DNA of 64,000 bases from an uncultured delta proteobacterium (GCA_963745835.1 CAVUZH010000013.1:256001-320000), one strand, 5' to 3'; counted from the stretch's first letter, positions 9,243 through 64,000 are shown. The notes: generated by a model not told the origin, from the sequence alone. A program made the numbers and translations.

Positions 9243-9262
9243 GATTTCACTCCCATCTAAGA

Positions 9263-9302
9263 GTTCGTTGAAATCGTTCAAGTAGTTCAAGCCGTTCAAA
9301 TC
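9263..9302. repeat. Short degenerate GTTCAA/TTGAAC tandem repeat
   Basis: gttcgttgaaatcgttcaagtagttcaagccgttcaaa, about 9-nt period. Confidence 0.5.
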
Positions 9303-9363: not shown

Positions 9364-10356
9364 CTATTTTTTAAACTTGTCGATAAATCCGCTTTTCTTG
9401 ATTTCTTCCAAGACGCTGCCGTCCAGGAGCCTCAGGCTCTCCGGCGTCTGCCCCTTGGCTTTGGCATTCGTGGCGGCCACCTGTGTAATGATAAATTCCA
9501 GGCCCTTGCGGTCGGGCAACACCATCACGCCGTCACCGTATTTGGCCAGGTAGTAGTCGTAGCCGAGACTGGCATCCTCATCGCTGACGCGGTTGTATTT
9601 CTTCATCAAGGACACTGCCAGCGCTTTGTCTTTGCGCAAAACGAAGTAACTCTCGATGATCGCTTTCATGGCGTTGACGATCTTCGGACGGTTGGCCTCG
9701 AAGTAGCTGCGCTTTACGATAAAGCAATTCTGCGGGAATGCCACACCGCTCTCGGCCAGATCGATGAGCGAATTTAGCTTGAATTCTCTCATGCCGACTG
9801 TGGTGTGCGGTTCGCTTAACAAGGTCGCGTGCACGGTCCCCTGGCTCAAAGCCGCCAGCCGCGTCATATTGCCACCGGTCTGGACGATGGTCACGTCCTT
9901 GGGATTGATGCCGAGTTTTTCCAACGCCACCTGAGTTGCGTAATCCGATGCCGAACCGAAGCGGCTGATGGCGATTCGTTTGCCTTTCAAACCTTCCGGC
10001 GTTTTTATGTCTGGACGAACTAGCAGCTTGTTGGGAATGAAGTTGATGCCGCCAGCGATAATCGTCGCATCGGCTCCCTGCAGATTGGCGGTGATGGCCA
10101 GAGCTCCGGTGGTAAAGACAATATGCAGCTCGTTAGCTAACAACGCCTGCATCGCCGGCGTGCCGCTCTCCAACGCCAGGTACTCGCCGTCGAGGCCGTA
10201 TTTCTGAAAAATTTTCTTCTCGTAAGCGAGCCACAGCAGCGCATGGATCGCAGTCGAAAAACCGCCGCTGGCGGCGCGGAATTTTTCCTGGGCGGCAGAG
10301 CGTAGCGGCAACGCCAACCAACATAACGCGAGAGCGACAGTTAAAATCTTTTTCAT
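9364..10356 (-). CDS. NitT/TauT/NMT1-type ABC substrate-binding protein
   Basis: Signal peptide; FQKYGLD; LKGKRIAISRFGSASD. Confidence 0.88.
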   Translation of the reverse strand: MKKILTVALALCWLALPLRSAAQEKFRAASGGFSTAIHALLWLAYEKKIFQKYGLDGEYLALESGTPAMQALLANELHIVFTTGALAITANLQGADATIIAGGINFIPNKLLVRPDIKTPEGLKGKRIAISRFGSASDYATQVALEKLGINPKDVTIVQTGGNMTRLAALSQGTVHATLLSEPHTTVGMREFKLNSLIDLAESGVAFPQNCFIVKRSYFEANRPKIVNAMKAIIESYFVLRKDKALAVSLMKKYNRVSDEDASLGYDYYLAKYGDGVMVLPDRKGLEFIITQVAATNAKAKGQTPESLRLLDGSVLEEIKKSGFIDKFKK

Positions 10357-10548
10357 AGAATTCCTTTATTCAAGCTCCACCCAGTCAGGTTTGAACACGG
10401 ACAGATTTCACTGTCAAGATAACTCGCCGCAGGCGGCGAGTGCTGCGCTTTAGGGTCGGCTGATTTCTATCAACCGGGCTCGTATGTTGACTTCTTACAG
10501 CCGGCTCACGTAATTAGGTGTAGATCGCGCCGCATGAAGGATCTGTGA

Positions 10549-11556
10549 ATGAAGCGCCATTGGGAAATCGTTCTCTTGAGCCTGGCCATGGCCCTCTGGC
10601 CGTTGTCAAGATTGGCCGCGGCGCAAGAACTTGAGAAGCTCGCCATCGGCCATTCTAACCTGCGCAACGATATCGCCGCGCTCTGGATACCTAAAGACCT
10701 CGGCATCTTCCGCAAGAACGGCTTAGATGCCAACATCGTCCTGATTACCGGCGGTCAACGCATGACTCAAGCGCTCCTCTCCAGTTCCGCCCCGCTGGGA
10801 TTTACCGGAGCCACACCGGTGGTCACAGCCGTTGCCGGCGGCGCCGATACCGTGATGATCCTCGGCATCAATAACAAATTGACTTACGACATTTGGGCAA
10901 AGCCCGACGTCAAAAAGCCGGAGGACTTAAAAGGCAAGACTCTCGCGATCAGCAGCTTTGGCAGCTCATCGCATGTGGCATCGTTTCTCATGCTGCAACA
11001 CTTCAAACTCGATGAGAAACGCGACCGCATCACATTTTTGGCCATCGGCGATGAACCAACTCGGGCGCAAGCGTTGATCGCTGGAAGAATCGACGCTACG
11101 ATTATAGACCCGTCCGTCTCGCTGCAGATCAAAGACCGCGGTTTTACCTATCTCGGCAACCTCGAGCCCCTGGGAGTTCCCTTCGTCAACAACGCGCTGG
11201 TGTCCACTCGCGCATTCCTAAAAGAAAGGCCTCGCGCGGCGGAGGCTGTCGTCCGATCCATCGTCGAAGGCAATGCCTTCATGCTCAACCCGGCCAACCG
11301 GGCGAAAGTCACCGAGATCCTGGCCAAGCATCTCCGGCTAAGCGGCGAGGAAGCCAGACGGACGTATGAAGACTTACTGCCCAAGGTCGAAGCCAGGCCT
11401 TACCCGAACATGGACGCCGTCAAAGCGACGATCGAGATCATGGGTTCGCGCAATCCCAAGATCGCCCGGTTGAAACCGCAAGATGTCCTCGACACTTCGA
11501 TTCTTGAGCGCCTCGAGCAAAGCGGATCGATTCGCTCGGAATCGGCAAAACAATAG
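10549..11556 (+). CDS. NitT/TauT/NMT1-type substrate-binding protein
   Basis: Signal peptide; GIFRKNGLD; LKGKTLAISSFGSSS. Confidence 0.88.
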   Translation: MKRHWEIVLLSLAMALWPLSRLAAAQELEKLAIGHSNLRNDIAALWIPKDLGIFRKNGLDANIVLITGGQRMTQALLSSSAPLGFTGATPVVTAVAGGADTVMILGINNKLTYDIWAKPDVKKPEDLKGKTLAISSFGSSSHVASFLMLQHFKLDEKRDRITFLAIGDEPTRAQALIAGRIDATIIDPSVSLQIKDRGFTYLGNLEPLGVPFVNNALVSTRAFLKERPRAAEAVVRSIVEGNAFMLNPANRAKVTEILAKHLRLSGEEARRTYEDLLPKVEARPYPNMDAVKATIEIMGSRNPKIARLKPQDVLDTSILERLEQSGSIRSESAKQ

Positions 11557-11564
11557 GAGCGAAC

Positions 11565-12662
11565 ATGATTTTTCTTACCAATGCTCACGTTGAGCAGGTT
11601 CTCGACATGCCCACCTGCATTCAAGCGATGGAGGAGGCATACCACGAGCTTAATCAATTGCGCGCCGGTTACCGGCCGCGGATCGATTTCTATGTTCCGC
11701 AAGAACCTCACTACTATCGTTGGGGAACCATGGAAGGCGCATCGCGCAAGCTTGGCGTCTTCGCCATCCGCATGAAATCAGACATGCTGGCGTGGGAAAA
11801 CAAAGACGGCTTCATCGTCGAGGATAAATACTGCATCGAGCGCGGAACCTATTGCGGCCTGATATTTCTCACCAGCACACGCAACGGCGAGCCCTTGGCG
11901 ATCATCAACGACGGTTACCTCCAGCATATGCGGGTCGGCGCCTGCGCCGGGCTGGGAACCAAATACCTGGCGCGGCAGAACTCGAAAGTATTGGCGATGA
12001 TCGGCTCCGGCGGCATGGCGCGGACCTATGCCGAAGCGATCAAACACGTCAAACCCATCGAAGTCATGCGCGTATTCAGCCCGACCAAAGCCAACCGCGA
12101 AGCTTATGCCGCTGAAATGACCGAGAAGCTGGACATGGAAGTGATCGCCGTTGACTCGCCGGAAAAAGCGCTTAAAGGCGCCGACGTGGTTGCCCTAACC
12201 ACCGACTCGCTGGTTCCGGTGATCAAGGCCGACTGGCTCGAGCCCGGAATGCATATCAATAATGTGCGCAATAACGAAGCCGGTCCTGACGTTCTAAAGC
12301 GGGCCGACGTGATCGCCCGCCTCGGCACATCCACTCTGTTCGCCGACCGCAACGCTCCGGAAGTAACCACGGGCAGCGACGGCATGTTCGGCTACATCGC
12401 CGGCAACGCCGAGGAAAAAAACAAGATTCCCTCGGCGCCGCATTACGAAATCGACAACCCGGGGATCGGCACCGTGCCCGATGTGATGGCCGGCCGTTGG
12501 ATTGGCCGCGCCAATGATCAACAGATCACGTTTTTAAACAATCAGGGAACGCAAGGCCTGCAGTTCGCCGCCGTCGGCGGCACGGCTTACAATCTGGCGC
12601 GCGCTAAAGGTCTTGGACATCCGCTGCCGCTGGAATGGTTCACGCAGAATATACGGGATTAG
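11565..12662 (+). CDS. Ornithine cyclodeaminase/mu-crystallin family protein
   Basis: TRNGEPLAIINDGYLQHMRVGA, IGSGGMA Rossmann motif, WLEPGMHI. Confidence 0.88.
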   Translation: MIFLTNAHVEQVLDMPTCIQAMEEAYHELNQLRAGYRPRIDFYVPQEPHYYRWGTMEGASRKLGVFAIRMKSDMLAWENKDGFIVEDKYCIERGTYCGLIFLTSTRNGEPLAIINDGYLQHMRVGACAGLGTKYLARQNSKVLAMIGSGGMARTYAEAIKHVKPIEVMRVFSPTKANREAYAAEMTEKLDMEVIAVDSPEKALKGADVVALTTDSLVPVIKADWLEPGMHINNVRNNEAGPDVLKRADVIARLGTSTLFADRNAPEVTTGSDGMFGYIAGNAEEKNKIPSAPHYEIDNPGIGTVPDVMAGRWIGRANDQQITFLNNQGTQGLQFAAVGGTAYNLARAKGLGHPLPLEWFTQNIRD

Positions 12663-12773
12663 AGAAAGTTGCAGTGATGGAGAGCTGGAGTTATGGCAAA
12701 AACACTCGAATCTATTTTCTGATTCCCAGCGTTTCTCCCTGACTCGGTACTCCATCTCAAGGAGGATTCATTT

Positions 12774-13568
12774 ATGGCGGTTCTTCGCTACATCGCTTAT
12801 CTCAGCGATGATCCGGAAAAAACAAGCGACTTCTATCGTCGCTTTCTCGGCACCGAAGAACTGGGCCGCTCAGGCGAAGGCGAAATCTCGATTACCGATG
12901 GATTCTACAATCTGACGTTTTTCAAAAGGCGCGCTCAATTAAACGAATTGAAAATGGAGTGCGGCCTGCATCATATCGGTTTGGCAGTCGATGATCTGGA
13001 AGAAAGTAAAGGACGGTTTCTAGCTCTGAATCCGCGCGGCATGATCCTCCAGGAGCCCGACGATATTCATCACGGAGAGATCAGAATTCACGACCCCGAA
13101 TGTTTTCCGGTTAGCTTGTCGACCCGGCAATTCGGCGTGCCGGCTGAAAAAGAAAAGCAGTTCCCCCGGGTCCGTCATATCGCCTACAACGCTTTGGATC
13201 CGGAGATGATGCTGCGCTTCTACACTCAAGTCTTCGGCATGCGCGAGGTGCCGTCAAGCTACCAGCGGCGGCAGCAAGGCCGGGGCAACCGGTTTTGCGG
13301 CGACGGCCAGACCAATCTGGCAATACACCCGTTCTACAACCCCATCGAAGGCCATGAGGCGAAATTCGGCATCAATCATGTCGGGTTTCTCACCAACACG
13401 ATGGAGGCGACCTTAGCCGAATTGCGCAAAGTGTTGAACATCGCGCCTCGCCCATCGACCCGACCCTACGCCGAAGTCCGATTCCGCGATCCGGAAGGCA
13501 ACGCGCTGGATTTGTCGCAGACCAAAGGCTGGGAGGTGGATGTGAACAAATGGGTCAGTGCGGCCTAG
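12774..13568 (+). CDS. Two-domain VOC/glyoxalase family protein
   Basis: Tandem VOC domains (GLHHIGLAVDDL; RVRHIA...GINHVGF...FRDPEGN). Confidence 0.85.
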   Translation: MAVLRYIAYLSDDPEKTSDFYRRFLGTEELGRSGEGEISITDGFYNLTFFKRRAQLNELKMECGLHHIGLAVDDLEESKGRFLALNPRGMILQEPDDIHHGEIRIHDPECFPVSLSTRQFGVPAEKEKQFPRVRHIAYNALDPEMMLRFYTQVFGMREVPSSYQRRQQGRGNRFCGDGQTNLAIHPFYNPIEGHEAKFGINHVGFLTNTMEATLAELRKVLNIAPRPSTRPYAEVRFRDPEGNALDLSQTKGWEVDVNKWVSAA

Positions 13569-13574
13569 CGCTCA

Positions 13575-13610
13575 TCAACGTTCAAAGTTTAACCCTTCAA
13601 CGTTCAAAGC
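13575..13610. repeat. Short GTTCAA-type repeat
   Basis: tcaacgttcaaag occurs twice. Confidence 0.5.
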
Positions 13611-13750
13611 CAGAATTGAATCGATCCAGTAGCATTGTGGTACGAAAGCTAATTTGTTTTAGCCCGGATTCCGCAGTAGAGATGGATACCTTAGAGTGAT
13701 CGAGGGGCGAGCATGGAGGAGCGAAGGCACAGAAGCGAACAATTTCAAAG

Positions 13751-13932
13751 CCGTGTATGGTGCTTGCCCTGGGCTGGCAATTTTTTTCAAGCGTCCGCTA
13801 AAGCACTGGAGCTTGCAGGCCACTATCAGCCACAGACCTATTGCCTTGGTTCCGGAGGGTTCGTCCCTTGATCGCTGTGTCATCCTGAACTGCGGGGATT
13901 CGGGTGTAGTTCAACTCCATCGGACAGCCTGC
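13751..13932 (-). ncRNA. Candidate structured non-coding RNA or orphan IS110-like non-coding end
   Basis: Several helices visible by eye: GCUGU/ACAGC enclosing UGAACU/AGUUCA; AGGG/CCCU; AGGUC/GGCCU; GUGC/GCAC enclosing AGCG/CGCU and UUGCC/GGCAA. No credible ORF. Confidence 0.35.
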
Positions 13933-13994
13933 ATCACTCGATTTAACGTTGACTGCATGCGCGCACTCTCATCATCGAGAAAGTAGGAGATAAC

Positions 13995-15008
13995 ATGAAA
14001 GGCACAAGAACCATTGCGGCCAGTTTGACGATGCTGCTTTCGTTGCTGTCGCAATTTAAAATTTCTATAGCAGCGTCCGCACCTTTAGAAAAACTTACCA
14101 TTGGCTGGAGCGCCGTCGCCGGCTCGCAGGCGCCATTTTGGATCACCAAGGAGGCCGGCCTGTTCGAGAAAAACGGCCTTGACGTGATCATGATCTACCT
14201 CGACGGCGGCTCGCGAGCGACCCAAGCGATGATGTCCGGCGATCTGCCCATCGCCCAGGTCGGCGGCAACGCCCCTGTCGTCGCCAAGCTTCGAGGAGCT
14301 GACGTAACCCTGATCAGCGGGCTGCTAAACGTTCTCGCCTACAGCATGGTGGTTTCGCCGGAGATTAAACGGCCAGAGGATCTGAGGGGCAAAAAGCTCA
14401 CAGTCAGCCGTTTCGGATCCAATTCGGACTATGCCACCAGAAAGATACTGCTCAAATGGGGCCTCAAGCCCGACGTTGATGTGGCGATTTTGCAGATCCC
14501 CGGCGGGCAACCCACCCGGCTCGCGGCAATTCAAACCAAGCAGGTACACGGCATGGTCGCGCAACCTCCAGTAACCAACATGGCTCGTAAATTCAATATG
14601 AACATTATCGCGCAACCTGAGGATTTCGGCGGGGCTTATCCCACCACTCCTGTCGCATCGCGGGTTTCCTACATCCGGGAAAGGCGCGACACTGTGCGTA
14701 AATTCACCCGAGCCCTGCTCGAAGGCATCCACCTCTATAAGACCGACAAGGAATTCAGCAAAAAAGTGATCGGAAAATATGTCAAGACCAACGATAACGA
14801 CGCCTTGGAGGACAGCTACCAATTCTTCTCTCGCCTGGTGCCGGAGAAACCGTATCCATCACTCGATTCCGTCAAAGAAGCGCTGGCGGAGCTCGGCGAG
14901 AAAGACGCCAAAGCGCGCGCCTCGCGTCCGGAAGATTTCGTCGATATGAGTCTGATCAAAGAGTTCGATGACAACGGTTTTATCGACGGGCTGTATAAAA
15001 AGCGTTAG
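13995..15008 (+). CDS. NitT/TauT/NMT1-type substrate-binding protein
   Basis: Signal peptide; GLFEKNGLDV; LRGKKLTVSRFGSNSD. Confidence 0.88.
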   Translation: MKGTRTIAASLTMLLSLLSQFKISIAASAPLEKLTIGWSAVAGSQAPFWITKEAGLFEKNGLDVIMIYLDGGSRATQAMMSGDLPIAQVGGNAPVVAKLRGADVTLISGLLNVLAYSMVVSPEIKRPEDLRGKKLTVSRFGSNSDYATRKILLKWGLKPDVDVAILQIPGGQPTRLAAIQTKQVHGMVAQPPVTNMARKFNMNIIAQPEDFGGAYPTTPVASRVSYIRERRDTVRKFTRALLEGIHLYKTDKEFSKKVIGKYVKTNDNDALEDSYQFFSRLVPEKPYPSLDSVKEALAELGEKDAKARASRPEDFVDMSLIKEFDDNGFIDGLYKKR

Positions 15009-18835: not shown

Positions 18836-19426
18836 TCATTCGTGGAATCGGCGAGTCGCGACAGCGGCCGCTTCTTTGACCTGCGGCAGAGGACAGAAAT
18901 TGTTTGCCTCCACTCCGAACACTGGATTGAACTTGCTACGAAAATTTTCCAAAGCAATGACCGCCGCTAATTCCACCAATTCCTCGTCGGTGAAGTGTTC
19001 ATTGAGCCGATTGAAGAACTCATCCGTAACCCGTCGTTCCGTGTAGGTCATCCGCTCGGCTAACTCCAGCGCCAACCGCTCGCGCAATGAAAACAGCGGA
19101 TTCTCCTTGTAATCTCCCAGCACTGCTTCGACTTTCTCCGCGGAAGCCCCATTTTGCATCGCACTGGATGCGTTACTGTCAATTCAAAATGGGCAGCCGT
19201 TGATATTGGCGGTCTTAACACAGAGAAGGTGCTTTAATTCGGGCGAAATGAGCCCTGACTCCTGAATCCCTTGAGCCAGTGCCTGAACTCCCCTCTGAAT
19301 TGTCGGTCTTAACGCATAGACTTTCGCAGTATTCGAAACCACGCCCAGGCGCTTCTTCTGCGCTTCAAAAACTTCTCGCACCTCGTCATTCGCTTCACTT
19401 TCGGTTATGCCTTTGATTCTCGCCAT
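18836..19426 (-). CDS. AhpD/carboxymuconolactone-decarboxylase-like protein, putative selenoprotein (CPFU)
   Basis: ATG 19426 after GGAGGG. The two track ORFs 19184-19495 and 18836-19159 are in frame and join across TGA 19184-19186 as ...ANINGCPF-U-IDSNASSAMQNG..., 196 aa. The UGA sits at the second Cys of the family CxxC. Confidence 0.85.
19156..19171 (-). promoter_or_regulatory. Candidate SECIS hairpin of the AhpD-like gene
   Basis: GCAUC-CAGUGC-GAUGC starting 12 nt after the UGA; CCAUUUU/AAAAUGG can form an outer stem over the UGA. Confidence 0.5.
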
Positions 19427-19649
19427 ACTCCCTCCGCGCTCGATATCTAAATTGTGTTTCGCAACACTGTTACACGAAATCCGATGGTCTTCCACAAAGA
19501 TGCAAATCTCGCCTGACTCGATTTAGCTCCGACTGCTGCAGCTGGAGCGAATCTATCATACGGTTGCGCTGGATAGTTAACGTGTTTCGAGATGACATCT
19601 AGAATAACAATTCATCCCAGCAGCATGAGAGTTGTTGATCGCGGATGAG

Positions 19650-20138
19650 TCAACTCGCCGGCAGCCCCAACGCAAAGGCAATTTGCCTGAGCACATTTTT
19701 CTCGGCGTCTGAGATGCGTTCCCCGCCAATTCCGAAGATACCGCCTTCGTTCGAAGCCTCGGCGACGCGTTCGCCGACGGCTAGCAGCCATTTTTTGAAC
19801 TCATCGGCTTCATCGGCTTTGGCCTTACGGCTAACGATATCATTTACCGCCCTTATGTGATTCAACGCCAACTCCTTTGCCTGCTCCGGATCTTTGATGC
19901 CCTGAGGAGGCTCCGGTTTGGTTTGCCGCTCTTTCAAATCCGCAGCCAACTCGGCAATCAGCGGATTGGAACTGCCCTTTTGCAGCATCTCCGCCATAGC
20001 CATTCCCATCGATAACATCTCCTTCAGCACCCCCCAAGGCCCGTTGGGGCTGGCACAGGTAACCGCTAGTCCGACCATTGGCGCAGCGGCAACAATCATT
20101 TTCCATTCTTCCGTAGTGAAATCGCTTTTTCTTGCCAC
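19650..20138 (-). CDS. Hypothetical helical protein
   Basis: GTG start after GGAGG; protein-like composition (FTTEEW...VAEASNEGGIFGIGGERISDAE). Confidence 0.75.
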   Translation of the reverse strand: MARKSDFTTEEWKMIVAAAPMVGLAVTCASPNGPWGVLKEMLSMGMAMAEMLQKGSSNPLIAELAADLKERQTKPEPPQGIKDPEQAKELALNHIRAVNDIVSRKAKADEADEFKKWLLAVGERVAEASNEGGIFGIGGERISDAEKNVLRQIAFALGLPAS

Positions 20139-20229
20139 TGGAATTGCCTCCTGGTCTAAGAGTCAGTTGTTGTGTCGCTGAGATCATGCGGCGATGAAGT
20201 CTGTAAACAACATGAAAGATATTAGGCTG

Positions 20230-20583
20230 TCACCTGGCATCCTCCACCCGAACCAGCTCGATGACCCACCGTATTACCGCATTCGGCGGGATCCGGCCGT
20301 CCCTCGTACCTTCTCGATACGCAAGGTGCGGACTCACGCGCGCCTCCCTGGTTCCGCCTTCGCGCATTCCTATGACACTAGTTTCAAGCATGGCGGTGGG
20401 ATCCCGCCGCCCGACTTCGAATCGATACTCGTCGCCAGGTTGATCATCGGAGCTGGCTATTTTCTCGCCTCGGTTTAGAAAACCCTGGTATTTGATCACG
20501 GCAAAGCTTCCAGGCTCTGCCCCTCGACCGGCGCCAATACTAAGATCCCTAATTTTGATGCCCTTCTTTTGCTTTAGGTTCAC
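20230..20583 (-). CDS. FKBP-type peptidyl-prolyl isomerase-like protein (divergent)
   Basis: DLSIGAG, IKYQGFL, GMREGGTR...PHLAY...IPPNAVIRWVIELV; several canonical pocket residues look substituted; start approximate. Confidence 0.75.
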   Translation of the reverse strand: MNLKQKKGIKIRDLSIGAGRGAEPGSFAVIKYQGFLNRGEKIASSDDQPGDEYRFEVGRRDPTAMLETSVIGMREGGTREARVSPHLAYREGTRDGRIPPNAVIRWVIELVRVEDAR

Positions 20584-20617
20584 CAAGAGAGAGCCTGAGT
20601 TAGGATCGTGGTGCGCG

Positions 20618-21361
20618 TCAAATAAAGTGAAATCCGCCGTCGACATTCAATAGTTGTCCGGTCATGAAGTCGCTGTCTGGCGATGCCAGAAATAAGACGG
20701 TGCCGACCAGGTCGTCTTCGATCTGAGAGCGCTTGATGCTGCGTTGCTGAGCGCGGATTTTTTCGTATTCGGGATCAACCTTCCGTCCTTCGGTGACGAC
20801 GAATCCCGGACTGACGGTATTCACATTGATGTTGAAATCGCCAAGTTCCCGCGCCATCGCACGGGTCATGGCGATGATCGCGCCTTTGGAAGTGACGTAA
20901 TGGATGTAGTTGGGATTGCCGGTGAGAGCGACGTTGGAAGAGATATTGATGATCTTGCCCTTGTTTTGCTTCCGCATGTAAGGTACCGCGGCTTTGGCGC
21001 ACAACCATGAGCCGCGCACGTTGACTGCCATTGCCTTGTCGAATTCATCGACCGTCATCTCCCAGAACGGTCCTTTCCAGACTGTCATGAAGTAAGCGGC
21101 GTTATTGATGAGAACATCCACCGTACCGAATTGTTTGACGGTCTCGTCGACCATCGCCTTGACGCTCTTCTCATCGGTCACATCGCACGCCATGCTGATC
21201 GCGCTGCCGCCGATATCGGTTACGGCTTTCACCACATGATCGGCGCTGACGATGTCCGGCAATGCTACCTTGGCGCCTTCTTTAGCAAAGGCTACTGCAT
21301 AGGCTTTGCCGATCTTGCCGCCGCCGCCGGTAATGATCACGGATTTATCTTTGAATCGCAT
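20618..21361 (-). CDS. Short-chain dehydrogenase/reductase (SDR), paralog 1
   Basis: TGGGGKIG, NNAA, YVTSK catalytic motif. Confidence 0.93.
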   Translation of the reverse strand: MRFKDKSVIITGGGGKIGKAYAVAFAKEGAKVALPDIVSADHVVKAVTDIGGSAISMACDVTDEKSVKAMVDETVKQFGTVDVLINNAAYFMTVWKGPFWEMTVDEFDKAMAVNVRGSWLCAKAAVPYMRKQNKGKIINISSNVALTGNPNYIHYVTSKGAIIAMTRAMARELGDFNINVNTVSPGFVVTEGRKVDPEYEKIRAQQRSIKRSQIEDDLVGTVLFLASPDSDFMTGQLLNVDGGFHFI

Positions 21362-21429
21362 CTACAATCCCCAACAAATGATAAAAATAAAAACGGAAAG
21401 CTGAACAGATACCTCATTCAGCTTCCATT

Positions 21430-22176
21430 TTATCCGATAAAATTCGCGCCGCCATCGACGTTCAGCAATTGTCCCGTCATGAAGTCGCTTTCGGGCGAGG
21501 CCAAAAACAGAACGGTTCCTACTAAGTCGTTTTCAACCTGGACCCGCTTCAGAGAGCGATTTGCCACGCGGCTGGCACTAAACGCCGGCTCGACCTGGCG
21601 GCCTTCGGTCTCGACAAAACCCGGAGCCACCGTATTAACGCAGATATTGTAATCGCCAAGCTCCCGCGCCATGGCGCGGGTCATCGCGATAATTGCTCCT
21701 TTGGAAGTGACGTAGTGAATATAATTCGGACTGCCGTTCAAAGCGGTGCCGGAGGAAATATTGATAATTTTGCCTTTCCCTTGCTTCTTCATATGAGGAA
21801 ATGCCGCCTTGGCGCATAGCCAAGATCCCCGCACATTCACGGCCATCGCCTTGTCGAATTCATCGACCGCCATCTCCCAGAACGGCCCTTTCCATACTGT
21901 CATGAAATACGCGGCATTGTTCACCAGAATATCGACCCCGCCAAACTGCTTGGCGGTCTCGTCGACCATCAATTTGACGCTCTTTTCATCGGAAACATCG
22001 CATGCCGAGCTGATCGCCGTGCCACCCATGTCTTGAATCGCTTTGACCACATGATCCGCGCTGGCGATATCCGGCAACGAAACCTTGGCGCCCTCTTTGG
22101 CGAACGCCATCGCATAAGCTTTGCCAATCTTGCCACCGCCGCCGGTAACGATCACGGATTTATCTTTGAAACGCAT
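21430..22176 (-). CDS. SDR, paralog 2 (tandem duplicate)
   Basis: Same motifs and nearly the same sequence as paralog 1; ATG 22176 after GGAGG. Confidence 0.93.
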   Translation of the reverse strand: MRFKDKSVIVTGGGGKIGKAYAMAFAKEGAKVSLPDIASADHVVKAIQDMGGTAISSACDVSDEKSVKLMVDETAKQFGGVDILVNNAAYFMTVWKGPFWEMAVDEFDKAMAVNVRGSWLCAKAAFPHMKKQGKGKIINISSGTALNGSPNYIHYVTSKGAIIAMTRAMARELGDYNICVNTVAPGFVETEGRQVEPAFSASRVANRSLKRVQVENDLVGTVLFLASPESDFMTGQLLNVDGGANFIG

Positions 22177-22449
22177 GGTCGAGTCCTCCTGTGGGAAACT
22201 ATGAAAACAGAAAGCGGAAAACTGAAACAAATGCTTGCTCTAAGATTATGCAGAGGCAAAGCTGAACCAATGCTTCCTAATGCGACTTGTTTCCGTTTTC
22301 AGCTTTTATAATTCAGCTCTAACAAATGTTGCCCCTGCCTTAACACCGCCTCCGCGGCGTGTCAACGAACCTGCCATTTCATTGACTTGAGCCGGCGCCG
22401 CACTTATGATCGAAACCAGATAGAGCCGTGATCATGTCGGTGACCACGA

Positions 22450-22540
22450 TTTGAGAATTTTACGAATACGGAACACAAACACGATTTTGAGCGAAGCGTT
22501 GAGCACAACGAAGCATATGAGGCTTTTTCAGCATTCTGGA
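22450..22540. repeat. MITE-like intergenic element (AACACG-rich family)
   Basis: Shares gagaatt..aacacgatt..gagcga..ttgagcac..acgaagcatatgaggctttttc.gca with 56205-56300. Confidence 0.65.
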
Positions 22541-22550
22541 AGGGGATTAC

Positions 22551-23510
22551 ATGGCGAAACTGAAGCTCACGATGGCCTGCGATAGATACGACTATCTCCA
22601 GCCTTTGCGCGAGGGCCAGGTCGAAGTCGAGGGCATCGATCTCAACCTGATCACGGTTGAAAGCGGCATTCGCCATGAGCGAATGTTCCGATACGGCGAG
22701 TACGATGCCTGTGAGTTCTCAATGTCTTCCTATCTGGTCGCGCGCGGCCGAGACGTGGATTGGTTGCAAGCCATTCCGTTTTTTCCGCGCCGCATGTGGG
22801 GGCACAAATTCTGCTTCATTCGCTCCGGTTCCGGGATCAAGAAGCCCGCGGATCTAAAAGGCGGCCGCATCGGTTTGCGCAGCTATGAAAACACCCTCGC
22901 CCTGGTCACCAAAGGCATGCTGATGAACAGCTACGATCTGTCGGTCACCGATGTCACCTGGGTAATTGTCAACAAAGAACACGTTGGTTTTAAACTTCCG
23001 CCGAACATCAAAGTGGAATTCGTCGACGGCCAACGGAAACTGGAAGATTTATTGGTTGAGGGCAAGGTCGATGCGGAGGTTGAACCGGATTTACCGCAGC
23101 GCTGGATTCGCGACGAAGGAAGCATCGAACGGCTGTTTCCGGAATTCGAAAAAGAGGAGAAAGAGTACTATCAGCGGACCAAGGTTTTCCCGATCATGCA
23201 CCCGATTGTCATCAAGAAAGAAATCCTCGACAGCGATCCCTGGGTGGCCACCAGCCTCTACGAAGCATTTGTGGCGTCACGTCAAGCGTACAACGAGTTT
23301 ATGGAGCAACCGCACCGGCTCAGTTTTGCCTGGGCACGCTCGTATTTGGAAGAAGAACGGAAGTTTTTCGGTAAAGACCCTTTTTATCAGGGCTTCAGAG
23401 AAAACCATCACGACGTGCAGAATTTGATTAAGTTTGCCGGCCAGCAGGGCATGCTCGGCCGTCAATTGACTGTTGAAGAGTTGTTTGCTGAGAACACCCA
23501 CGGCACATGA
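22551..23510 (+). CDS. 4,5-dihydroxyphthalate decarboxylase (PhtD/OphC)-like protein, binding-protein fold, no signal peptide
   Basis: LKLTMACDRYD, YDACEFSMSSY, AIPFFPRR, FPIMHPIVIKK. Confidence 0.8.
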   Translation: MAKLKLTMACDRYDYLQPLREGQVEVEGIDLNLITVESGIRHERMFRYGEYDACEFSMSSYLVARGRDVDWLQAIPFFPRRMWGHKFCFIRSGSGIKKPADLKGGRIGLRSYENTLALVTKGMLMNSYDLSVTDVTWVIVNKEHVGFKLPPNIKVEFVDGQRKLEDLLVEGKVDAEVEPDLPQRWIRDEGSIERLFPEFEKEEKEYYQRTKVFPIMHPIVIKKEILDSDPWVATSLYEAFVASRQAYNEFMEQPHRLSFAWARSYLEEERKFFGKDPFYQGFRENHHDVQNLIKFAGQQGMLGRQLTVEELFAENTHGT

Positions 23511-23601
23511 TGGCATCGTCATAGTGATAAAAGAAGATTCCGGGCGCTCGCTTTTTCGGATTAAATTTTTGTGAATAGCACAGTTGAGAGAGGAGACTAA
23601 G

Positions 23602-24705
23602 ATGGCTGAGTATCGAATTATCGATGCGGACGGGCACGTCATGGAGCTTGACAGCGAGCTGCGCGAATTCATCGGCCCACCCTACAAAGATCTGGAATGG
23701 CATCAGAGCTATTCCTTTTGGCCAGGCCTCACCATGGACGGCTACTTGCGTTCGTTGCGTCAGAAAGGCGGCTGGGCCGGCGGCGGCGACGGCCCGAAGG
23801 CAAATCACTGGCTCGACTTTCTCGACAAGAACAAGATTGAGCTGACGGTTCTTTACCCGACTCAGGGGCTCACTCACGGAGCGATCCAGGATAGAGACTG
23901 GGCCATTTGCATGGCGAGAGCCTACAACGACTGGCTCTATCACAAATTCATGGCAGTGAGCCCACGCCTCGTCGGCGTTGCGCTTTTGCCGATACAAGAT
24001 ATCGCCGAAGCGGTTAAGGAATTGCGCCGTTGCGTTAACGACCTCGGCATGGTCGGCGCCGTGCTGCCTGCTGTCGCTCCTGCCGGCCGGCTTTACAGCG
24101 GTCCTGAATTTTACCCGCTATGGGAAGAAGCGCAGAGGCTGGACGTACCGGTTTCGACTCACGGCGGCCTAAGCATGCCGTCGCTGGGCCTCGATATGGT
24201 GAACAATTTCACCATCGGACACACACTGGAACATCCGTTCGCCCAGATTCGCCAGTTCACCGCCTTGATGTTCGAAGGAGTTTTCGAGCTGTTCCCAAAC
24301 TTCCGCTTCGGCTGCATTGAATGCGGCGTCGGCTGGGTGCCTTACATGATGGACCGAATGGACGAGGAACAGGAGCGTAAAGGTCACTATTCGCCGCGGT
24401 GCAAAATGAAACCCAGCGAGTACGTCAAGAAAGGAAATATCTTCTTCGCCGTCGAAGTCGAAGAGTCGGCGCTACCGCTGGCCGCGCAAGTCGCCAATGA
24501 CAATGCGCTCATCTGGGCTTCCGATTATCCGCACGAACGCGATCAGCGCGACTTCAGCCAGGACATTCCGAATTTAATTAACCGCAAAGATGTCAGCGAT
24601 GAGCTCAAGCGCAAAATCTTTTGGGACAATCCGTTGAGATTCTACCCGCGGTTGAAGGAACGCGTGGAGAACGCTCAGTTATCAAAGAAAGCTGCCAGCG
24701 CATAA
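23602..24705 (+). CDS. Amidohydrolase family 2 protein
   Basis: IIDADGHVME, VSTHGG, WASDYPHE; ATG 23602 after AGGAG. Confidence 0.88.
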   Translation: MAEYRIIDADGHVMELDSELREFIGPPYKDLEWHQSYSFWPGLTMDGYLRSLRQKGGWAGGGDGPKANHWLDFLDKNKIELTVLYPTQGLTHGAIQDRDWAICMARAYNDWLYHKFMAVSPRLVGVALLPIQDIAEAVKELRRCVNDLGMVGAVLPAVAPAGRLYSGPEFYPLWEEAQRLDVPVSTHGGLSMPSLGLDMVNNFTIGHTLEHPFAQIRQFTALMFEGVFELFPNFRFGCIECGVGWVPYMMDRMDEEQERKGHYSPRCKMKPSEYVKKGNIFFAVEVEESALPLAAQVANDNALIWASDYPHERDQRDFSQDIPNLINRKDVSDELKRKIFWDNPLRFYPRLKERVENAQLSKKAASA

Positions 24706-24790
24706 TTCACAGTCGGATAATGGCATTCCGATGATACATGATTACGTTTAGCCCAAAATGCGCTAGACCGGGCTCGATAAAGAACAGTTT

Positions 24791-25546
24791 ATGAACCAGG
24801 ACGAATTCATCGCCGAATTGTGGGGCTATGCCGCGGAGGTTCCCACCGAGCAGCACCCATGGTTCGACGGAATCATCAAGCACCGCTGGAGTAAGGAGCA
24901 AATTATCCTCGGCGAAGTGCAGCACTATCTGCGCGTCCGCACCAACCCGATCTTCTTTGGCTATATGGCGGTCAACGCCGTATCCGCCAAAGAGTATGCG
25001 GTGATGGACACGGTTCTGGAAAATTTCATGGAAGAGCTGGGCGGTAAACGCACGCACATGGATATCATGCTGCAATTCCTCGAGGAAGGCGGCATCTCAC
25101 GGCAGGAAGCGGACAACGCCGAGCCGGCGCCGGGAACCATGGCGGCGATCGAAATGATCATCGGCTGCTGCCAAAGACGTTCGGCGTTGGAAGGAGTGGC
25201 CATGCTCGCCTTCGTTGAAAGCCAACTCGGAGGCGCGGGCAAGGTCTCCGAAAAGGTCTATCGTGAATTGACCGAGCACTATGGCTTCTCGGCCCGCGCC
25301 GCGGAAACATATCGGCTGCACGCCGCGCAAGACGAGGGACACGGCAGCCGCCAGATCGATGCGATTCGCTTGCTAGCCAATAATAGTGAAACTCAAGACA
25401 AAGTACGCGCGGCAGTGAAGCTTGGCGTGACGGCTTTCACTCTGGAATGGGACGGCCATGTTCAGGCAATGACCGGCAAAAGAGAATTCTGGGGCGGGGT
25501 CGCCGATGTAAAGCTGCGGCAACCAAAGGTCAAGTTAGCAAAGTAG
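24791..25546 (+). CDS. Heme-oxygenase-like diiron (CADD/PqqC/TenA-fold) redox protein
   Basis: ENFMEE...H, VESQ and HAAQDEGH match the CADD-type E/H/E/H/D/H ligand pattern. Confidence 0.78.
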   Translation: MNQDEFIAELWGYAAEVPTEQHPWFDGIIKHRWSKEQIILGEVQHYLRVRTNPIFFGYMAVNAVSAKEYAVMDTVLENFMEELGGKRTHMDIMLQFLEEGGISRQEADNAEPAPGTMAAIEMIIGCCQRRSALEGVAMLAFVESQLGGAGKVSEKVYRELTEHYGFSARAAETYRLHAAQDEGHGSRQIDAIRLLANNSETQDKVRAAVKLGVTAFTLEWDGHVQAMTGKREFWGGVADVKLRQPKVKLAK

Positions 25547-25662
25547 TCTTGAACTTTTTCCTAATGCTTGTTGGTCGCCGAGTTATTCGTTTTTAGGAAC
25601 CTAGATATAGGCTTCGCGGGTATGACCTAACGACAGTCGAAACCGAAAACCCGACACCCGCA

Positions 25663-25884
25663 TCACACCGGCCAATCCTGTGGTAATTCCCGACGCAATT
25701 TCTGATACTCCGGGTTGTCGGTTTGCTCGCGCCGCAGGCGAGCCAAGGCCTCAATGATTTCCTTTTGAACTAACTTAAGCGAATTGGAGACCATGCCCGT
25801 GGTCTCTTCGAAGCCGAGGCCTCAATTGCTGTATCAGCCGCTCATGCGGGTCAGGATATAAAGATCCTTTTCTTTTCTCGTCAT
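25663..25884 (-). CDS. Putative small selenoprotein with two Sec (U-Y-S-N-U), 73 aa, unknown family
   Basis: Translated by hand: MTRKEKDLYILTRMSG-U-YSN-U-GLGFEETTGMVSNSLKLVQKEIIEALARLRREQTDNPEYQKLRRELPQDWPV*. TGAs at 25834-25836 and 25822-25824; ATG 11 nt after the upstream stop; SECIS-like hairpin downstream. Absent from the ORF track. Confidence 0.7.
25787..25806 (-). promoter_or_regulatory. Candidate SECIS hairpin for the double-UGA gene
   Basis: Perfect 7-bp stem GAGACCA/UGGUCUC with loop CGGGCA; the loop starts 23 nt after UGA2 and 35 nt after UGA1. Confidence 0.6.
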
Positions 25885-25895
25885 TGCATCACCCG

Positions 25896-26312
25896 TCAAT
25901 TCGGAACACCGGAGAACCCAACTTGCTGCACGGTGATCGACTCAGTTGTCGTCTGCGGCTGTCCTTGTTCATTAACCATTATCCGTAGTCGCACGAAAAA
26001 TCTCCACTGATTTTCCTGCCAGCTCACGAGCAGAATCAAGAATGCATTATCGACTATGGTATTCGGCGGTTCCTCACAAGCGACGGCGAGATCGAGAATG
26101 AAATGGTCTTGCGCTGCGACTTTTAACGGTGGCCCAAACTTGAGTTCCTCAGCCTTGAATTTTCCATGCGGCACCCGCACGGAAAGCAGGCTCATCGGTG
26201 TTTCGGTCATGTTTCGCACCCGCCATTTGAACAACCACCGCCCCGGGTCCTTACTCGTGCCGCACTCAGCCTGCTCAACTTCAATCTTCGGCCCCCCATT
26301 CTCCCCACTCAT
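25896..26312 (-). CDS. Hypothetical beta-rich protein directly upstream of the double-UGA gene
   Basis: 138-aa ORF from ATG 26312; alternating hydrophobic strands (WLFKWRVRN, FILDLAV, WRFFVRLRI). Confidence 0.7.
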   Translation of the reverse strand: MSGENGGPKIEVEQAECGTSKDPGRWLFKWRVRNMTETPMSLLSVRVPHGKFKAEELKFGPPLKVAAQDHFILDLAVACEEPPNTIVDNAFLILLVSWQENQWRFFVRLRIMVNEQGQPQTTTESITVQQVGFSGVPN

Positions 26313-26317
26313 TACGG

Positions 26318-26358
26318 TTGAACCAAGCGTTAGCTGGAACACTGGAACATTTGGAACG
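26318..26358. repeat. Short TTGAAC/TGGAAC repeat
   Basis: ttgaac...ctggaac actggaac atttggaac. Confidence 0.5.
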
Positions 26359-26364
26359 CCGTGA

Positions 26365-27384
26365 TCAAGGTTTTAATTTTCCTTCCGCTCTTAGCTCCTG
26401 CTGAGCTAGCTTGAGAATTCGATCGTTGACCACGCGGTCCAAAGTGAAATTCTTGTCCACCAAGCCGGCGCGAATGTCCTCATCGAGCATTTGCTGGAGG
26501 CCTGCTGTGGCAATGGACAGGTCCGAAGTAAGGCCGGGCGCATAGAGATCCCAGGCGGCGCTGACGATGTCCGACTCGCCCTGCAAGCCTGCCTCGTATC
26601 CCGACTTGATCGCTTCCTGCTTGTTGAACTTGGCGAGATTGATTCCTTGTATATAGGCCTTGAGCATACGCTTGCTGGTCTCGGGAAACTTCTCCAGCAT
26701 CTCATTGCGGGTTACCAGAATGTTTTGCGGAATACCTAAGGACTCGCTCATATTGCTGATGACAGAATAGCCTGCCTTGATGAGCCGAACGCCGTCTTCT
26801 GTGGAAAACGGCGCTGCAGCGATGATCCCCTTTTCGATTGCCGCCGCCCGCAAAACCGTGCCGCCAACCGCGCGCAGCACCACGTCTTTGTCGGGATTGA
26901 TGTTGTTCTTTTTGAGGAAGGCTTTCATGGCAAACTCGGAATACGTTCCTGCGCCGGTTACCCCAACGATCTTGCCTCTGAGATCTTCCACGCTGCGCGT
27001 CTGCTTGTTACCAAGCAAAATGTAATTCGTTGTGCTCGAAGTGCATCCAATGATAGCCAAATCCAAACCGCGCGCTTTACTGCGAAAAACTGCCTGAGCG
27101 CCGCCGATGGCCGCAAAATCCACTTCACCGGAAACCAGAGCGGCAATCGCCGCCGGACCGCCACGGATGAGAATCGGTTCGACTTGGAGCCCCTGCTGCT
27201 TGAAGAATCCGCGCGCTAGCGCTGTCCGAAACGGGATCTCGCTATTCCACGCCAGGCTGACGAAAACCATGCGGAGGTTCTTCTTTTCTTGCGCGAGAGC
27301 CGCCAAAGGCTGTGCCAGCATAAACAAGACAACCAATGTTAAGCAGAGCGGGCCGACATAGTGGGAGAGGGTTGGAAGCTTCAT
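26365..27384 (-). CDS. NitT/TauT/NMT1-type substrate-binding protein
   Basis: Signal peptide; GFFKQQGLQVE; LRGKIVGVTGAG. Confidence 0.88.
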   Translation of the reverse strand: MKLPTLSHYVGPLCLTLVVLFMLAQPLAALAQEKKNLRMVFVSLAWNSEIPFRTALARGFFKQQGLQVEPILIRGGPAAIAALVSGEVDFAAIGGAQAVFRSKARGLDLAIIGCTSSTTNYILLGNKQTRSVEDLRGKIVGVTGAGTYSEFAMKAFLKKNNINPDKDVVLRAVGGTVLRAAAIEKGIIAAAPFSTEDGVRLIKAGYSVISNMSESLGIPQNILVTRNEMLEKFPETSKRMLKAYIQGINLAKFNKQEAIKSGYEAGLQGESDIVSAAWDLYAPGLTSDLSIATAGLQQMLDEDIRAGLVDKNFTLDRVVNDRILKLAQQELRAEGKLKP

Positions 27385-27421
27385 TCAGGCGTCTTCCTTT
27401 CCTGAGCGCTGCTGGCACCAG

Positions 27422-27451
27422 GTGAACTATTGAACGGCTTGAATTTTGAAC
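27422..27451. repeat. Short TTGAAC repeat
   Basis: gtgaactattgaacggcttgaattttgaac. Confidence 0.5.
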
Positions 27452-27463
27452 ACCTAAGCACGT

Positions 27464-27931
27464 TTATCTTATCGCGTATACTGAAGTACGGCCTTGCTTG
27501 TCAAAACTGATTACGTCGTAGGCTGCGGATTGGCTCCTTCCATTCCCGGTGAGCCAACCGGCATGCCGGGCACCGCCAGACCCGCCACGGCCGGCCTTTC
27601 TTTGAGCAGGCGACGAATAAGATCTGCCGGCACATGGCCTTCAATCACATAGCTTTGAACCAGCGCGGTATGACACGAATAGAGTTTCTCCGGTACGTTG
27701 TATTTCATTTTAACGTCTCCGAGTTGCTTGCCCGTGACGTCCTTCTTTTCGATTCTAAAACCATTCGATTGCGGGTGCCCAACCACGCTGAACAGCATCC
27801 TCAGCCGGGATCCTGATGACCGTGATCGATGTTGTCGCGGATTTCGGTTGCGCATAGCTGGCCGCGCCGCTCATGAACAGGAAGAGGAAAATAGTGGCAT
27901 ACCGCCAGCAAAACGAGTTCCTTAAAGGCAT
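27464..27931 (-). CDS. DUF411 (CopG-like) exported metal-binding protein, putative selenoprotein (UGCC); three apparent 1-nt deletions
   Basis: ATG 27931 after AGGAG; signal peptide; QDPG-U-GCCSAW (TGA 27801-27803); SCHTA..YVIEGHVPA..GLAVPGMPVGSPGME; C-terminus YDVISFDKQGRTSVYAIR* after a frameshift near 27520. Confidence 0.75.
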
Positions 27932-28075
27932 TAATCTTCTCCTGACCTATAGAGGTGATGCCTCAAATTACCAGATAGCGTAGGTGCGGCAAGCGCAATA
28001 TGCGTGACGCGCGTTGACACTGAAGCTGGGACTGCGGTACCGATAAATTAGCGGATTTGCTGAAAGAGGTGGTTC

Positions 28076-29206
28076 ATGAAAAATGGTTTCAAGATTCTCG
28101 ACAGCGATATGCATTTGATGGAGCCAGTGGATCTATGGGAACGCTATATCGATGCGAAGTTCAAGGCTGATGCGCCGCGCGGCCTGACCAGCGATAACGT
28201 TCGCGATTTACGCATGGCGCACCCGGACGGCCGCTACTGGGGATTACCGGCAAGCCACAATCGTAACTCATCGCACCATCGAGGCCACAACTTCAGAAAA
28301 AACCAGACTATCTATAGATCGCATGCCGAGCGTGGCTGGACTGCGGACGTTCAGCTCGAGGCGATGGACATCGAAGGCATCGATGTCGCAGTGCTTTACC
28401 CGACGCGTGCGCTGCAGGTCCTGAGCGAACCTAGAATGGAACCGAAGTTCGCCGCCGCTTTGGCGCGGGCCTACAACGATTGGCTTTACGATTTCTGTAA
28501 AACCAACCCATCCCGGCTTCTCGGCGCCGGCATGATATCGCCTTTCGACATCGATGAAGCCGTCGCCGAAGCCAAACGCTGTGCGACCGAACTCGGTTTT
28601 CGCGCGGTTTTCATGCGCTCAAGCATCATGGAGGGACGAAACTGGTTTGACGAATACTTCGAGCCGCTGTGGGCGACGTTAGAAGAGTATGAACTGCCGG
28701 TCGGCTTTCACGAGTCGTCCTCGTCTGCGGCACGGCAGACTGGTGACTTTTTTGAACCGAATTTCATGCTCCGGCGAGCCGTCGCTCAACCGATGGAGCA
28801 GATGCTCGGCCTAGTGAGCCTATGCTCCGGCGGAGTCTTGGCGCGCCATCCCAAGCTGCGGGCCGCGTTTCTGGAAGCGAATTGCACGTGGCTGCCGTGG
28901 CTGTTGTGGCGTCTGGACGAAGGTTGGGAGCGCGAGGGCGATATCTGGGCGCAAGACTTGACCATGAAACCGAGCGAGTACTTCAAGAGACAATGCTTCG
29001 TATCGGTGGAGCCCGACGAGGATGGCGTCAAGTACGTAATCGATTACATCGGCACCGGGCGGCTGGTATTCTCCACGGACTACCCCCATGGAGATTCCAA
29101 ATTTCCAGATGCAGTCGAAACTTTCCTCGATCTGCCGATCACCGATAACGACAAACGTAAAATTCTTTGGGACAACTGCGCTGAGTTCTATCGTCTCGGT
29201 GCATAG
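28076..29206 (+). CDS. Amidohydrolase family 2 protein
   Basis: ILDSDMHLME, VGFHE, FSTDYPHGD. Confidence 0.88.
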   Translation: MKNGFKILDSDMHLMEPVDLWERYIDAKFKADAPRGLTSDNVRDLRMAHPDGRYWGLPASHNRNSSHHRGHNFRKNQTIYRSHAERGWTADVQLEAMDIEGIDVAVLYPTRALQVLSEPRMEPKFAAALARAYNDWLYDFCKTNPSRLLGAGMISPFDIDEAVAEAKRCATELGFRAVFMRSSIMEGRNWFDEYFEPLWATLEEYELPVGFHESSSSAARQTGDFFEPNFMLRRAVAQPMEQMLGLVSLCSGGVLARHPKLRAAFLEANCTWLPWLLWRLDEGWEREGDIWAQDLTMKPSEYFKRQCFVSVEPDEDGVKYVIDYIGTGRLVFSTDYPHGDSKFPDAVETFLDLPITDNDKRKILWDNCAEFYRLGA

Positions 29207-45700: not shown

Positions 45701-45712
45701 TTGAAATCCTTC

Positions 45713-48350: not shown

Positions 48351-48469
48351 TTTGGGTGTGCTTTGATCAATTAACTTATTTGATGGTTTCTTAAGCCTAC
48401 GATGTTGCTCCCTTCACGTGTCCTGGGTTCTGGGATGGACTCTCTTAAATTGATATTATAGAATTCGTC

Positions 48470-63996: not shown

Positions 63997-64000
63997 AGAA

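Follow-up and report, generated by a model that had tools for sequence, protein, structure and literature searches.

The window analyzed here is a stretch of 64,000 nucleotides (nt) of DNA from an uncultured delta proteobacterium (GCA_963745835.1 CAVUZH010000013.1:256001-320000). Three genes on its minus strand, herein referred to as G1, G2, and G3, are associated with TGA codons for which a reading as selenocysteine (Sec; U in protein motifs) is predicted. Recoding of UGA to Sec is in itself a textbook phenomenon. The genes, their candidate Sec codons, and the hairpins after these codons, including a likely Sec insertion sequence (SECIS), are located as follows:

18836..19426, minus strand: G1, AhpD/CMD-family gene of 196 codons with one in-frame TGA and the motif C-P-F-U
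19184..19186, minus strand: candidate Sec codon (TGA) of G1, aligned with the second Cys of CxxC in solved CMD proteins
19156..19171, minus strand: G1 hairpin, GCAUC-CAGUGC-GAUGC, 12 nt after the TGA
25663..25884, minus strand: G2, 73 codons with two in-frame TGAs (G-U-Y-S-N-U-G) and a TGA as its own terminator
25834..25836, minus strand: first candidate Sec codon of G2, TGA in 33/33 loci reaching the site, aligned with an invariant Cys of the Cys forms
25822..25824, minus strand: second candidate Sec codon of G2, a stop in 34/34 loci and TGA in the 33 with codons read; invariant Cys in the Cys forms
25809..25824, minus strand: G2 hairpin 1, 6-7 bp, with the second TGA inside the 5' arm and a variable loop sequence
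25787..25806, minus strand: G2 hairpin 2, GAGACCA-CGGGYA-UGGUCUC, likely SECIS
27464..27931, minus strand: G3, DUF411/CopG-type gene with a signal-peptide-like N-terminus, split over three frames in the window
27801..27803, minus strand: candidate Sec codon of G3 (U-G-C-C), TGA in 17/17 motif-bearing loci; first Cys of C-G-C-C in 6wis
27817..27818, minus strand: G3 deletion 1, one base lost between these positions
27783..27785, minus strand: G3 deletion 2, one G lost from a G run, inside the hairpin
27522..27523, minus strand: G3 deletion 3, one base lost; the frame as sequenced ends early at the TAA 27513-27511
27771..27788, minus strand: G3 hairpin, GCG-U-GG / UUGGGCA / CC-CGC in the window and GUGGGU-CGGGC-ACCUGC in relatives

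The source of the window is a soil bacterium of the class Binatia. The comparison set consists of 34 related loci (L001-L034) obtained from one scan of genome contigs; the window and these loci comprise 513 kb. The loci nearest to the window come from metagenome-assembled genomes (MAGs) titled 'Candidatus Binatia' or 'Deltaproteobacteria'. Titles in the whole set are Binatia, Deltaproteobacteria, Thermodesulfobacteriota, or Syntrophobacteraceae, and two loci are titled Udaeobacter and Verrucomicrobiia. Open reading frames (ORFs) were listed under the standard code and with TGA read-through, and the minus-strand sequence was also read directly. The G+C content of the window is 53.9%.

All four TGAs are present on the minus strand where an earlier note on this DNA had placed them (19184, 25822, 25834, and 27801), these values being the low coordinates of the codons at 19186-19184, 25824-25822, 25836-25834, and 27803-27801. 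Conservation in related genomes, on which the earlier note had staked its proposal of three UGA-recoded genes, was found for each gene: orthologues carry an in-frame UGA at both sites of G2 in 33/33 loci, in G3 in 17/17, and in G1 in 2/2. By this conservation, and not by statistics on the window sequence alone, the TGAs are judged to exceed chance. One locus, L033, begins at the second G2 TGA and was left out of the count for the first site. The claim that two of the TGAs fall on conserved Cys positions can be extended to all four, as homologues have Cys at the aligned positions: for G1 in the solved proteins 2ijc, 2gmy, and 2o4d, for G3 in 6wis, and for both sites of G2 in 17 Cys-form relatives. 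Coding constraint was observed on both sides of the UGA, by codon-position entropy in G2 and by structure alignments spanning the UGA in G1 and G3. Because the TGAs are conserved, relatives have Cys there, and both flanks are coding, all three genes are good candidates for Sec recoding.

Codon statistics for G2 were obtained from 33 sequences, namely, the window and 32 loci; L006 was excluded because of a frameshift close to its end. Wherever a locus extends to the site (33 loci), TGA stands at both internal stops, but the terminator differs among the 33 sequences, with TGA in 17, TAG in 10, and TAA in 6; thus, the internal stops of G2 are specifically UGA. Entropy at codon positions 1, 2, and 3 is 0.74, 0.43, and 1.39 in codons 2-16, located before the first TGA. 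This pattern is like that of codons 46-73 (0.75, 0.34, and 1.31), which indicates that the region upstream of the UGAs is translated in this frame. In codons 26-33, third-position entropy is only 0.26, vs. about 1.3-1.4 elsewhere in the gene, and the 36 nt that follow the second UGA are under constraint at the RNA level.

The consensus fold of 34 G2 sequences contains two hairpins with 13 pairs, of which none is broken; all six one-sided changes keep the pairing. According to a published model of the bacterial SECIS (Fig. 2 legend, PMC13188914), the loop has 3-9 nt with a G within its first two positions, the distance from UGA to loop is 16-37 nt, and the energy is at or below -7.5 kcal/mol. 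Hairpin 2 of G2 agrees with all four of these features for both UGAs. It starts 15 nt after the second TGA and 27 nt after the first, and its 6-nt loop, with a G at position 2 followed by another G, lies 22 nt from the second UGA and 34 nt from the first. Its seven pairs are unbroken in the 34 sequences and invariant at silent sites too. At -9.2 kcal/mol, it is the sole hairpin of the three genes to stand out by energy, with 2/200 shuffles folding equally well. Hairpin 1 (-7.5 kcal/mol) has six pairs, none broken and with five one-sided changes that retain pairing, and its variable loop is without the G. Hairpin 2 is like the bSECISearch consensus and the E. coli fdhF element in being an in-ORF hairpin just after a UGA with fitting loop, G, spacing, and energy. 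In contrast to these known cases, two UGAs located 12 nt apart share one region in G2, and the second UGA is itself part of the stem of a further invariant hairpin. Hairpin 2 is likely the element that would bind SelB; it may serve both UGAs, or hairpin 1 may assist at the first.

Relatives of G2 were sought by a profile search of 1.84 billion representative proteins, which gave 116 matches. Among the 26 matches examined, 21 have no interruption, are 60-133 residues long, and carry C-x3-C where G2 has its two U; the remaining five are incomplete or contain frameshifts. When 17 Cys forms and four Sec forms are aligned, both Cys are invariant at the U positions; the invariant positions of the family are C17, C21, F25, T28, M31, R64, P68, and P72. 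G2 conforms to the family signature, i.e., a Cys/Sec pair four positions apart followed by F-E-x-T-x-x-M-V and a C-terminal L-P-x-x-[FW]-P. Neither G2 nor its Cys forms match a family in Pfam or NCBIfam. In a further profile search, 184 proteins were found, and all nine with an organism name are archaeal (Sulfodiicoccus acidiphilus, Thermoplasmata, Thermoplasmatota, Geothermarchaeales, Thorarchaeota, and Heimdallarchaeota). These archaeal Cys forms are P0329, P0336, P0339, P0343, P0354, P0376, P0381, P0382, and P0391, from Sulfolobales, Thermoplasmata, Geothermarchaeales, and Asgard groups. All Sec forms of the family that were seen come from Binatia-like bacteria. G2 is the putative Sec-containing counterpart of a C-x3-C family that is unannotated, about 71 residues long, and archaeal in its named members.

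The AlphaFold2 model of G2, built from the 33-sequence alignment with U entered as C, shows four helices with a pLDDT of 92.1. Helix 1, which belongs to the bundle, bears the two Sec positions at its end, spaced four residues apart. A fold search of the model against PDB gave no solved structure at E<1. A function of G2 as a DNA-binding helix-turn-helix protein is unsupported: the low-probability fold matches are mostly helix-turn-helix regulators, none at E<1. A search of the ESM Atlas with the Cys form was uninformative (best score 0.79).

The ATG of G1 at 19426 is preceded by the Shine-Dalgarno-like GGAGGGAG. G1 belongs to the Pfam family CMD (PF02627; 42.9 bits, cut-off 23), with C-P-F-U aligned to C-x-x-C, and it aligns over its full length to the solved CMD proteins named above, where U corresponds to the second Cys of CxxC. 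The best NCBIfam match, over residues 1-173, is NF053654 'YciW-related (seleno)protein' (169.7 bits; 158.6 bits for the L004 copy). As 169.7 bits lie under the cut-off of 310, G1 is not a member of that equivalog; its sequence places it as a relative of NF053654 and a Binatia-specific branch. The TGA is kept in both related loci with the whole gene, L006 (94% identical) and L004 (86%); L005 ends before the site and was not counted. AhpD-like and CMD-like CxxU selenoproteins are listed in a table of PMC13188914, and G1 is like them in having a CMD domain with Sec replacing the second Cys of CxxC; G1 thus adds a new branch to a kind of selenoprotein that is already known. It would be a cytoplasmic AhpD/CMD-type thiol-selenol oxidoreductase (CxxU).

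Evidence for the G1 hairpin is weak: it folds with -4.7 kcal/mol, and 9/200 shuffles fold equally well. It agrees with the published SECIS model in spacing only, the first G standing at loop position 3. Except for one loop base, the first 33 nt on the 3' side of the G1 TGA are identical across three genomes.

The product of G3 belongs to DUF411 (PF04214), which matches the C-terminal ORF 27511-27855 with 94.9 bits (cut-off 27), and the gene is not intact in the window. In relatives, it forms one open frame with a single TGA and the motif T-V-Y-x-x-P-x-U-[GDE]-C-C-x-x-W-[VM]-x-H-L (17 loci), and the intact copies begin with a hydrophobic N-terminal leader, as judged by eye. The intact copy of L006 aligns with PDB 6wis over 110 residues (E=2.7e-26), with U at the first Cys of C-G-C-C. 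Thus, the intact relatives are like the DUF411/CopG proteins (PDB 6wis/6wje) over a region that includes C-G-C-C; unlike them, they have Sec as the first Cys of the motif (U-G/D/E-C-C). The CopG protein of Pseudomonas aeruginosa is a periplasmic copper-resistance protein, the CxCC motif of which holds a copper cluster. G3 would encode a secreted DUF411/CopG-type metal protein with Sec as the first Cys of CxCC, where the selenolate may serve as a ligand.

The distance from the TGA to the G3 hairpin is 12 nt in the window and 14 nt in relatives. The hairpin was analyzed in 16 of the 17 relatives, with L002 left out. Of its six pairs, two are changed on both sides, and pairing holds in 96.9% of cells. 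The covariation score was reached by 0/500 shuffles, a control that ignores relatedness. By energy (-4.2 or -5.2 kcal/mol), the hairpin is no better than shuffles, 81 and 83 of 200 folding equally well. Its loop, G, and spacing agree with the published model, and its energy of -4.2 lies above the limit of -7.5 kcal/mol. The earlier note had described stem-loops 12-15 nt after the TGAs; such stem-loops are present, at 12 nt in G1, 15 nt from the second UGA of G2 (27 nt from the first), and 12 nt in the window G3, and only G2 stands out by energy. A relaxed SECIS consensus, as was also suggested there, is not established: the G2 hairpin fits the published model, and the G1 and G3 hairpins are simply weaker than the model requires.

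The earlier note's description of the four TGAs as in-frame holds for G1 and G2. In the window copy of G3, the TGA 27803-27801 is in frame with neither the leader-bearing ORF from 27931 nor the DUF411 ORF 27511-27855. Alignment with L006, L001, L003, and L008 shows the three deletions listed above, which the earlier note had missed. The window G3 has been inactivated by three single-base deletions or is mis-assembled. If the frame breaks are assembly or base-calling errors, the organism has an intact Sec-containing DUF411 gene, and we give this explanation somewhat less than an even chance. In its favor, a number of genes past 47 kb likewise look broken into different frames (HerA-like 61822-63320, MutY-like 57070-58306, and fragments 48371-48927 and 55447-56160); additionally, two of the three deletions fall in short G or C runs, and related public MAGs err alike (a frameshift in G2 of L006 and a double frameshift in P0070). 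Real decay is indicated by comparison with the short-read relative L001 across 22801-28688, where only the three indels of G3 fall inside genes and all others are intergenic. Moreover, about 35 genes within the first 47 kb are unbroken, among them ORFs of 1088, 944, and 746 codons. At a position where 17/17 relatives have an invariant Leu (H-L-Q/E/R), the window G3 has Pro, as would be expected under relaxed selection.

The reading of the UGAs as Sec has to be weighed against a number of unfavorable observations. No tRNA-Sec was found by ARAGORN in the window or the 34 loci, and the window is without any tRNA gene. No Rfam match was found in the window at gathering thresholds, and no SelD-like or SelB-type GTPase motif was found in the 513 kb. 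The missing machinery motifs say little, since such genes fill only a few kb of a genome. A literature search gave no paper combining 'Binatia' and 'selenocysteine'. The Cys form of G1 was not found among its close orthologues (120 listed matches). The hairpins of G1 (-4.7 kcal/mol) and G3 (-4.2 kcal/mol) are weaker than the energy limit of the model allows. For the G2 hairpins, no pair is changed on both sides in the 34 sequences, so that their support is invariance and not covariation. Finally, G3 as sequenced cannot yield a full-length protein.

Two alternatives would dispense with Sec. In one of them, the UGAs are read as another amino acid (Trp, Gly, or Cys) by reassignment or near-cognate read-through, in agreement with the Sec machinery not having been seen in the window and the 34 loci and with public gene calls that put W at these TGAs. 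Such calls are found among the full-length entries. The protein search with G1 gave 610 matches at E<=1e-10, and among the 120 listed only five are full-length: four read W at the site, and the fifth is frameshifted. Two of the four W-reading entries read W at the terminal TGA too, which identifies these as gene calls under genetic code 4. Likewise, two of the 70 matches in the first G2 protein search are full-length with W at both sites, one of them also with W at the terminal TGA. TGA still functions as a stop in this organism, where it is an ordinary terminator that ends 11 of the 40 Pfam-supported genes of the window. Relatives have Cys at each of the four sites, a pattern that marks Sec and not Trp or Gly, and the internal stops are always TGA, while any of the three stops can serve as terminator. 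Insertion of another amino acid is thus very improbable in our view.

Equally small is the probability we assign to the UGAs being true stops, with short ORFs as products (43 residues in G2 and 107 in G1) and the upstream part of G2 acting as a leader peptide or regulatory RNA. In favor of this, the short ORFs are precisely those that gene callers predict, and an ATG follows the second G2 TGA inside the conserved hairpin. Against this stand the coding manner in which G2 codons 2-16 vary, the uninterrupted Cys relatives that span the full length of G2, the well-scored full-length model with its Sec-bearing helix within the bundle, and, for G1, the CMD domain and solved-structure alignments that run across the TGA. 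The short products are also what fills the databases, as the earlier note had suspected in speaking of mis-called proteins: 68 of the 70 G2 matches are tails of 43-52 residues starting at the Met after the second TGA, while 115 of the 120 listed G1 matches cover at most 59% of the query and only its post-TGA part, 107 of them being exactly the 107-residue ORF that starts after the TGA. Sec insertion by the ordinary bacterial route is, on the comparisons given here, the most likely reading of the in-frame UGAs of the three genes. SelB would deliver Sec-tRNA(Sec) to the UGA with the help of a downstream hairpin inside the coding sequence, the assignment of a particular hairpin to each UGA being presumptive.

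The neighborhood of G2 contains the following genes:

25896..26342, minus strand: h148, a conserved all-beta protein directly upstream of G2, with the likely start ATG 26312
26365..27384, minus strand: NMT1/THI5-like substrate-binding protein (Pfam NMT1, 82.6 bits), between G3 and h148
24791..25546, plus strand: heme-oxygenase-like 'iron-containing redox enzyme' (CADD/BesC-like; PF14518, 64.2 bits), a convergent neighbor given as context only

The gene h148 ends with a stop codon 11 nt ahead of the G2 ATG and is directly upstream of G2 in 33/34 loci, L033 being without sequence upstream of G2. The two genes would be translated from one transcript. G2 would likely be a diselenol/diselenide redox switch or a soft-metal chelator working with h148. 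No Pfam or NCBIfam match was found for h148. Its AlphaFold2 model (pLDDT 92.3) is a beta-sandwich of eight strands; a fold search gave only generic beta-sandwiches (ApaG and ASF1; E>=2e-3, TM-scores 0.27-0.46), and h148 belongs to no recognizable family. In 17 related genomes, G3 stands upstream of G2 in the same orientation, often with an NMT1-like gene between them, and the NMT1-like gene is found at this place in many, not all, of the 34 loci. The heme-oxygenase-like gene, of the diiron type, which matches NCBIfam TIGR04305 with 60.6 bits, under the cut-off of that model, is located downstream of G2 in 31/34 loci with 77-96% amino-acid identity; two of the three misses are contig ends. It is far more conserved than h148 (35-87%) and always stands tail-to-tail with G2. 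Beyond it are an amidohydrolase_2 gene and then an unannotated gene of 319 residues.

It is possible, and we put it forward only tentatively, that the order DUF411(Sec)-[NMT1]-h148-G2(2 x Sec) represents a selenium-based soft-metal/redox operon of Binatia. Such an operon would combine a secreted Sec-containing copper protein of the CopG type, a cytoplasmic diselenol helix protein, and a beta-sandwich partner. The SECIS arrangement would be undescribed, with either one SelB-binding hairpin for two UGAs 12 nt apart or two tandem hairpins, the first hiding the second UGA.

The earlier note had further proposed a very selenoprotein-rich lineage, for which the 513 kb covered here give no support. 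Across the 513 kb, 179 same-frame ORF pairs joined by TGA were scanned against Pfam, a screen that is by design blind to G2-like genes and non-Pfam families. By inspection, only the orthologues of G1 have a domain (CMD) across the TGA. The DUF411 orthologues of G3 were recovered too, with the Pfam match downstream of the TGA. In the other Pfam-bearing candidates of the 179, the domains lie wholly on one side of the TGA, including two adjacent same-frame permease genes. This outcome is local, covering the window and the 34 loci, and holds nothing beyond G1 and G3 orthologues. A screen by codon usage recovered none of the three known cases and was set aside. The local density of candidate selenoproteins is partly conserved synteny, because G3 precedes G2 on the same strand in 17 genomes.

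Other features of the window and the loci were also observed. The first 47 kb of the window are almost without frame breaks, and several genes in 47000-64000 look frame-split or fragmentary (e.g., 61822-63320, 57070-58306, 53872-55318, 55447-56160, 48371-48927, and 52720-53037). They encode a HerA-like ATPase (three frames) and MutY-like, cupin, amidohydrolase, luciferase-like, and NMT1-like proteins; the region could be rich in pseudogenes or affected by a local assembly error. Frameshifted copies were also seen in public MAGs, namely, the G2 tail of L006 (10001-10186), P0070 (double), G1 in P0188, and P0069, and also in the G3 copy of L002 (about 1096), where homology is lost after residue 37 of the 68-residue C-terminal query. 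Tandem paralogous short-chain dehydrogenase genes are located at 20618-21361 and 21430-22230 (minus strand), with a cross-match in L006 of ~76% nucleotide identity. Genes for NMT1/THI5-like proteins are found five times in the window, amidohydrolase_2 genes three times, and ornithine-cyclodeaminase-like genes twice (9364-15008, 26365-27384, 49476-50447, 8151-9299, 23584-24705, and 28076-29206), which looks like a lineage-typical expansion. A molybdopterin oxidoreductase of 944 residues, followed by a 531-residue 4Fe-4S dicluster and NrfD-type membrane protein, is encoded at 42866-47308 (minus strand); neither has an in-frame TGA. The loci titled Candidatus Udaeobacter (L007) and Verrucomicrobiia (L014) are both of the Binatia type, and L014 has its gene order in common with L012 (Binatia title), with near-identical proteins. 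Mis-binned contigs seem likelier here than transfer.

In the main text of a 2026 selenoproteome review (PMC13188914), the terms DUF411, CopG, PF04214, UxxxU, YciW, and NF053654 were not found. A literature search gave no paper joining 'DUF411' with 'selenoprotein'. The BSepDB paper and one part of its supplement mention neither DUF411 nor CopG, the database's family list (Table S2), which may bear on novelty, standing outside that part; 11 Binatia genomes appear in Table S1 of the supplement, only as genomes analyzed. Small proteins with two Sec residues named in PMC13188914 are the NF041115 'metal-binding protein' (UxxU), an FmdB-family putative regulatory protein (UxxU), and MbdU (CU). G2 is like these in being a small protein in which two close Sec residues replace a Cys pair, and unlike them in carrying U-x3-U on a helix, and the NCBIfam models of these proteins do not match it. 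In the part of the literature covered by these sources, the G2 and Sec-DUF411 families, and the class using them, appear to be unrecorded.

In public databases, hundreds of G1 and G2 entries have been cut to stubs or translated under the wrong genetic code, while the true proteins would hold the residues that matter; frameshifts in MAG copies add to the truncated calls. Two new family models could correct annotation pipelines in this respect. G2, with 22 and 34 nt from its two UGAs to one invariant loop, offers a compact natural test of the distance between SECIS and UGA. Sec in a CopG-type copper motif, together with a helix diselenol, would point to selenium chemistry in metal handling in an abundant uncultured soil lineage. 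If the proposed operon and its SECIS arrangement are real, Binatia would be a Sec-using class with small selenoproteins that are missing from current catalogues.

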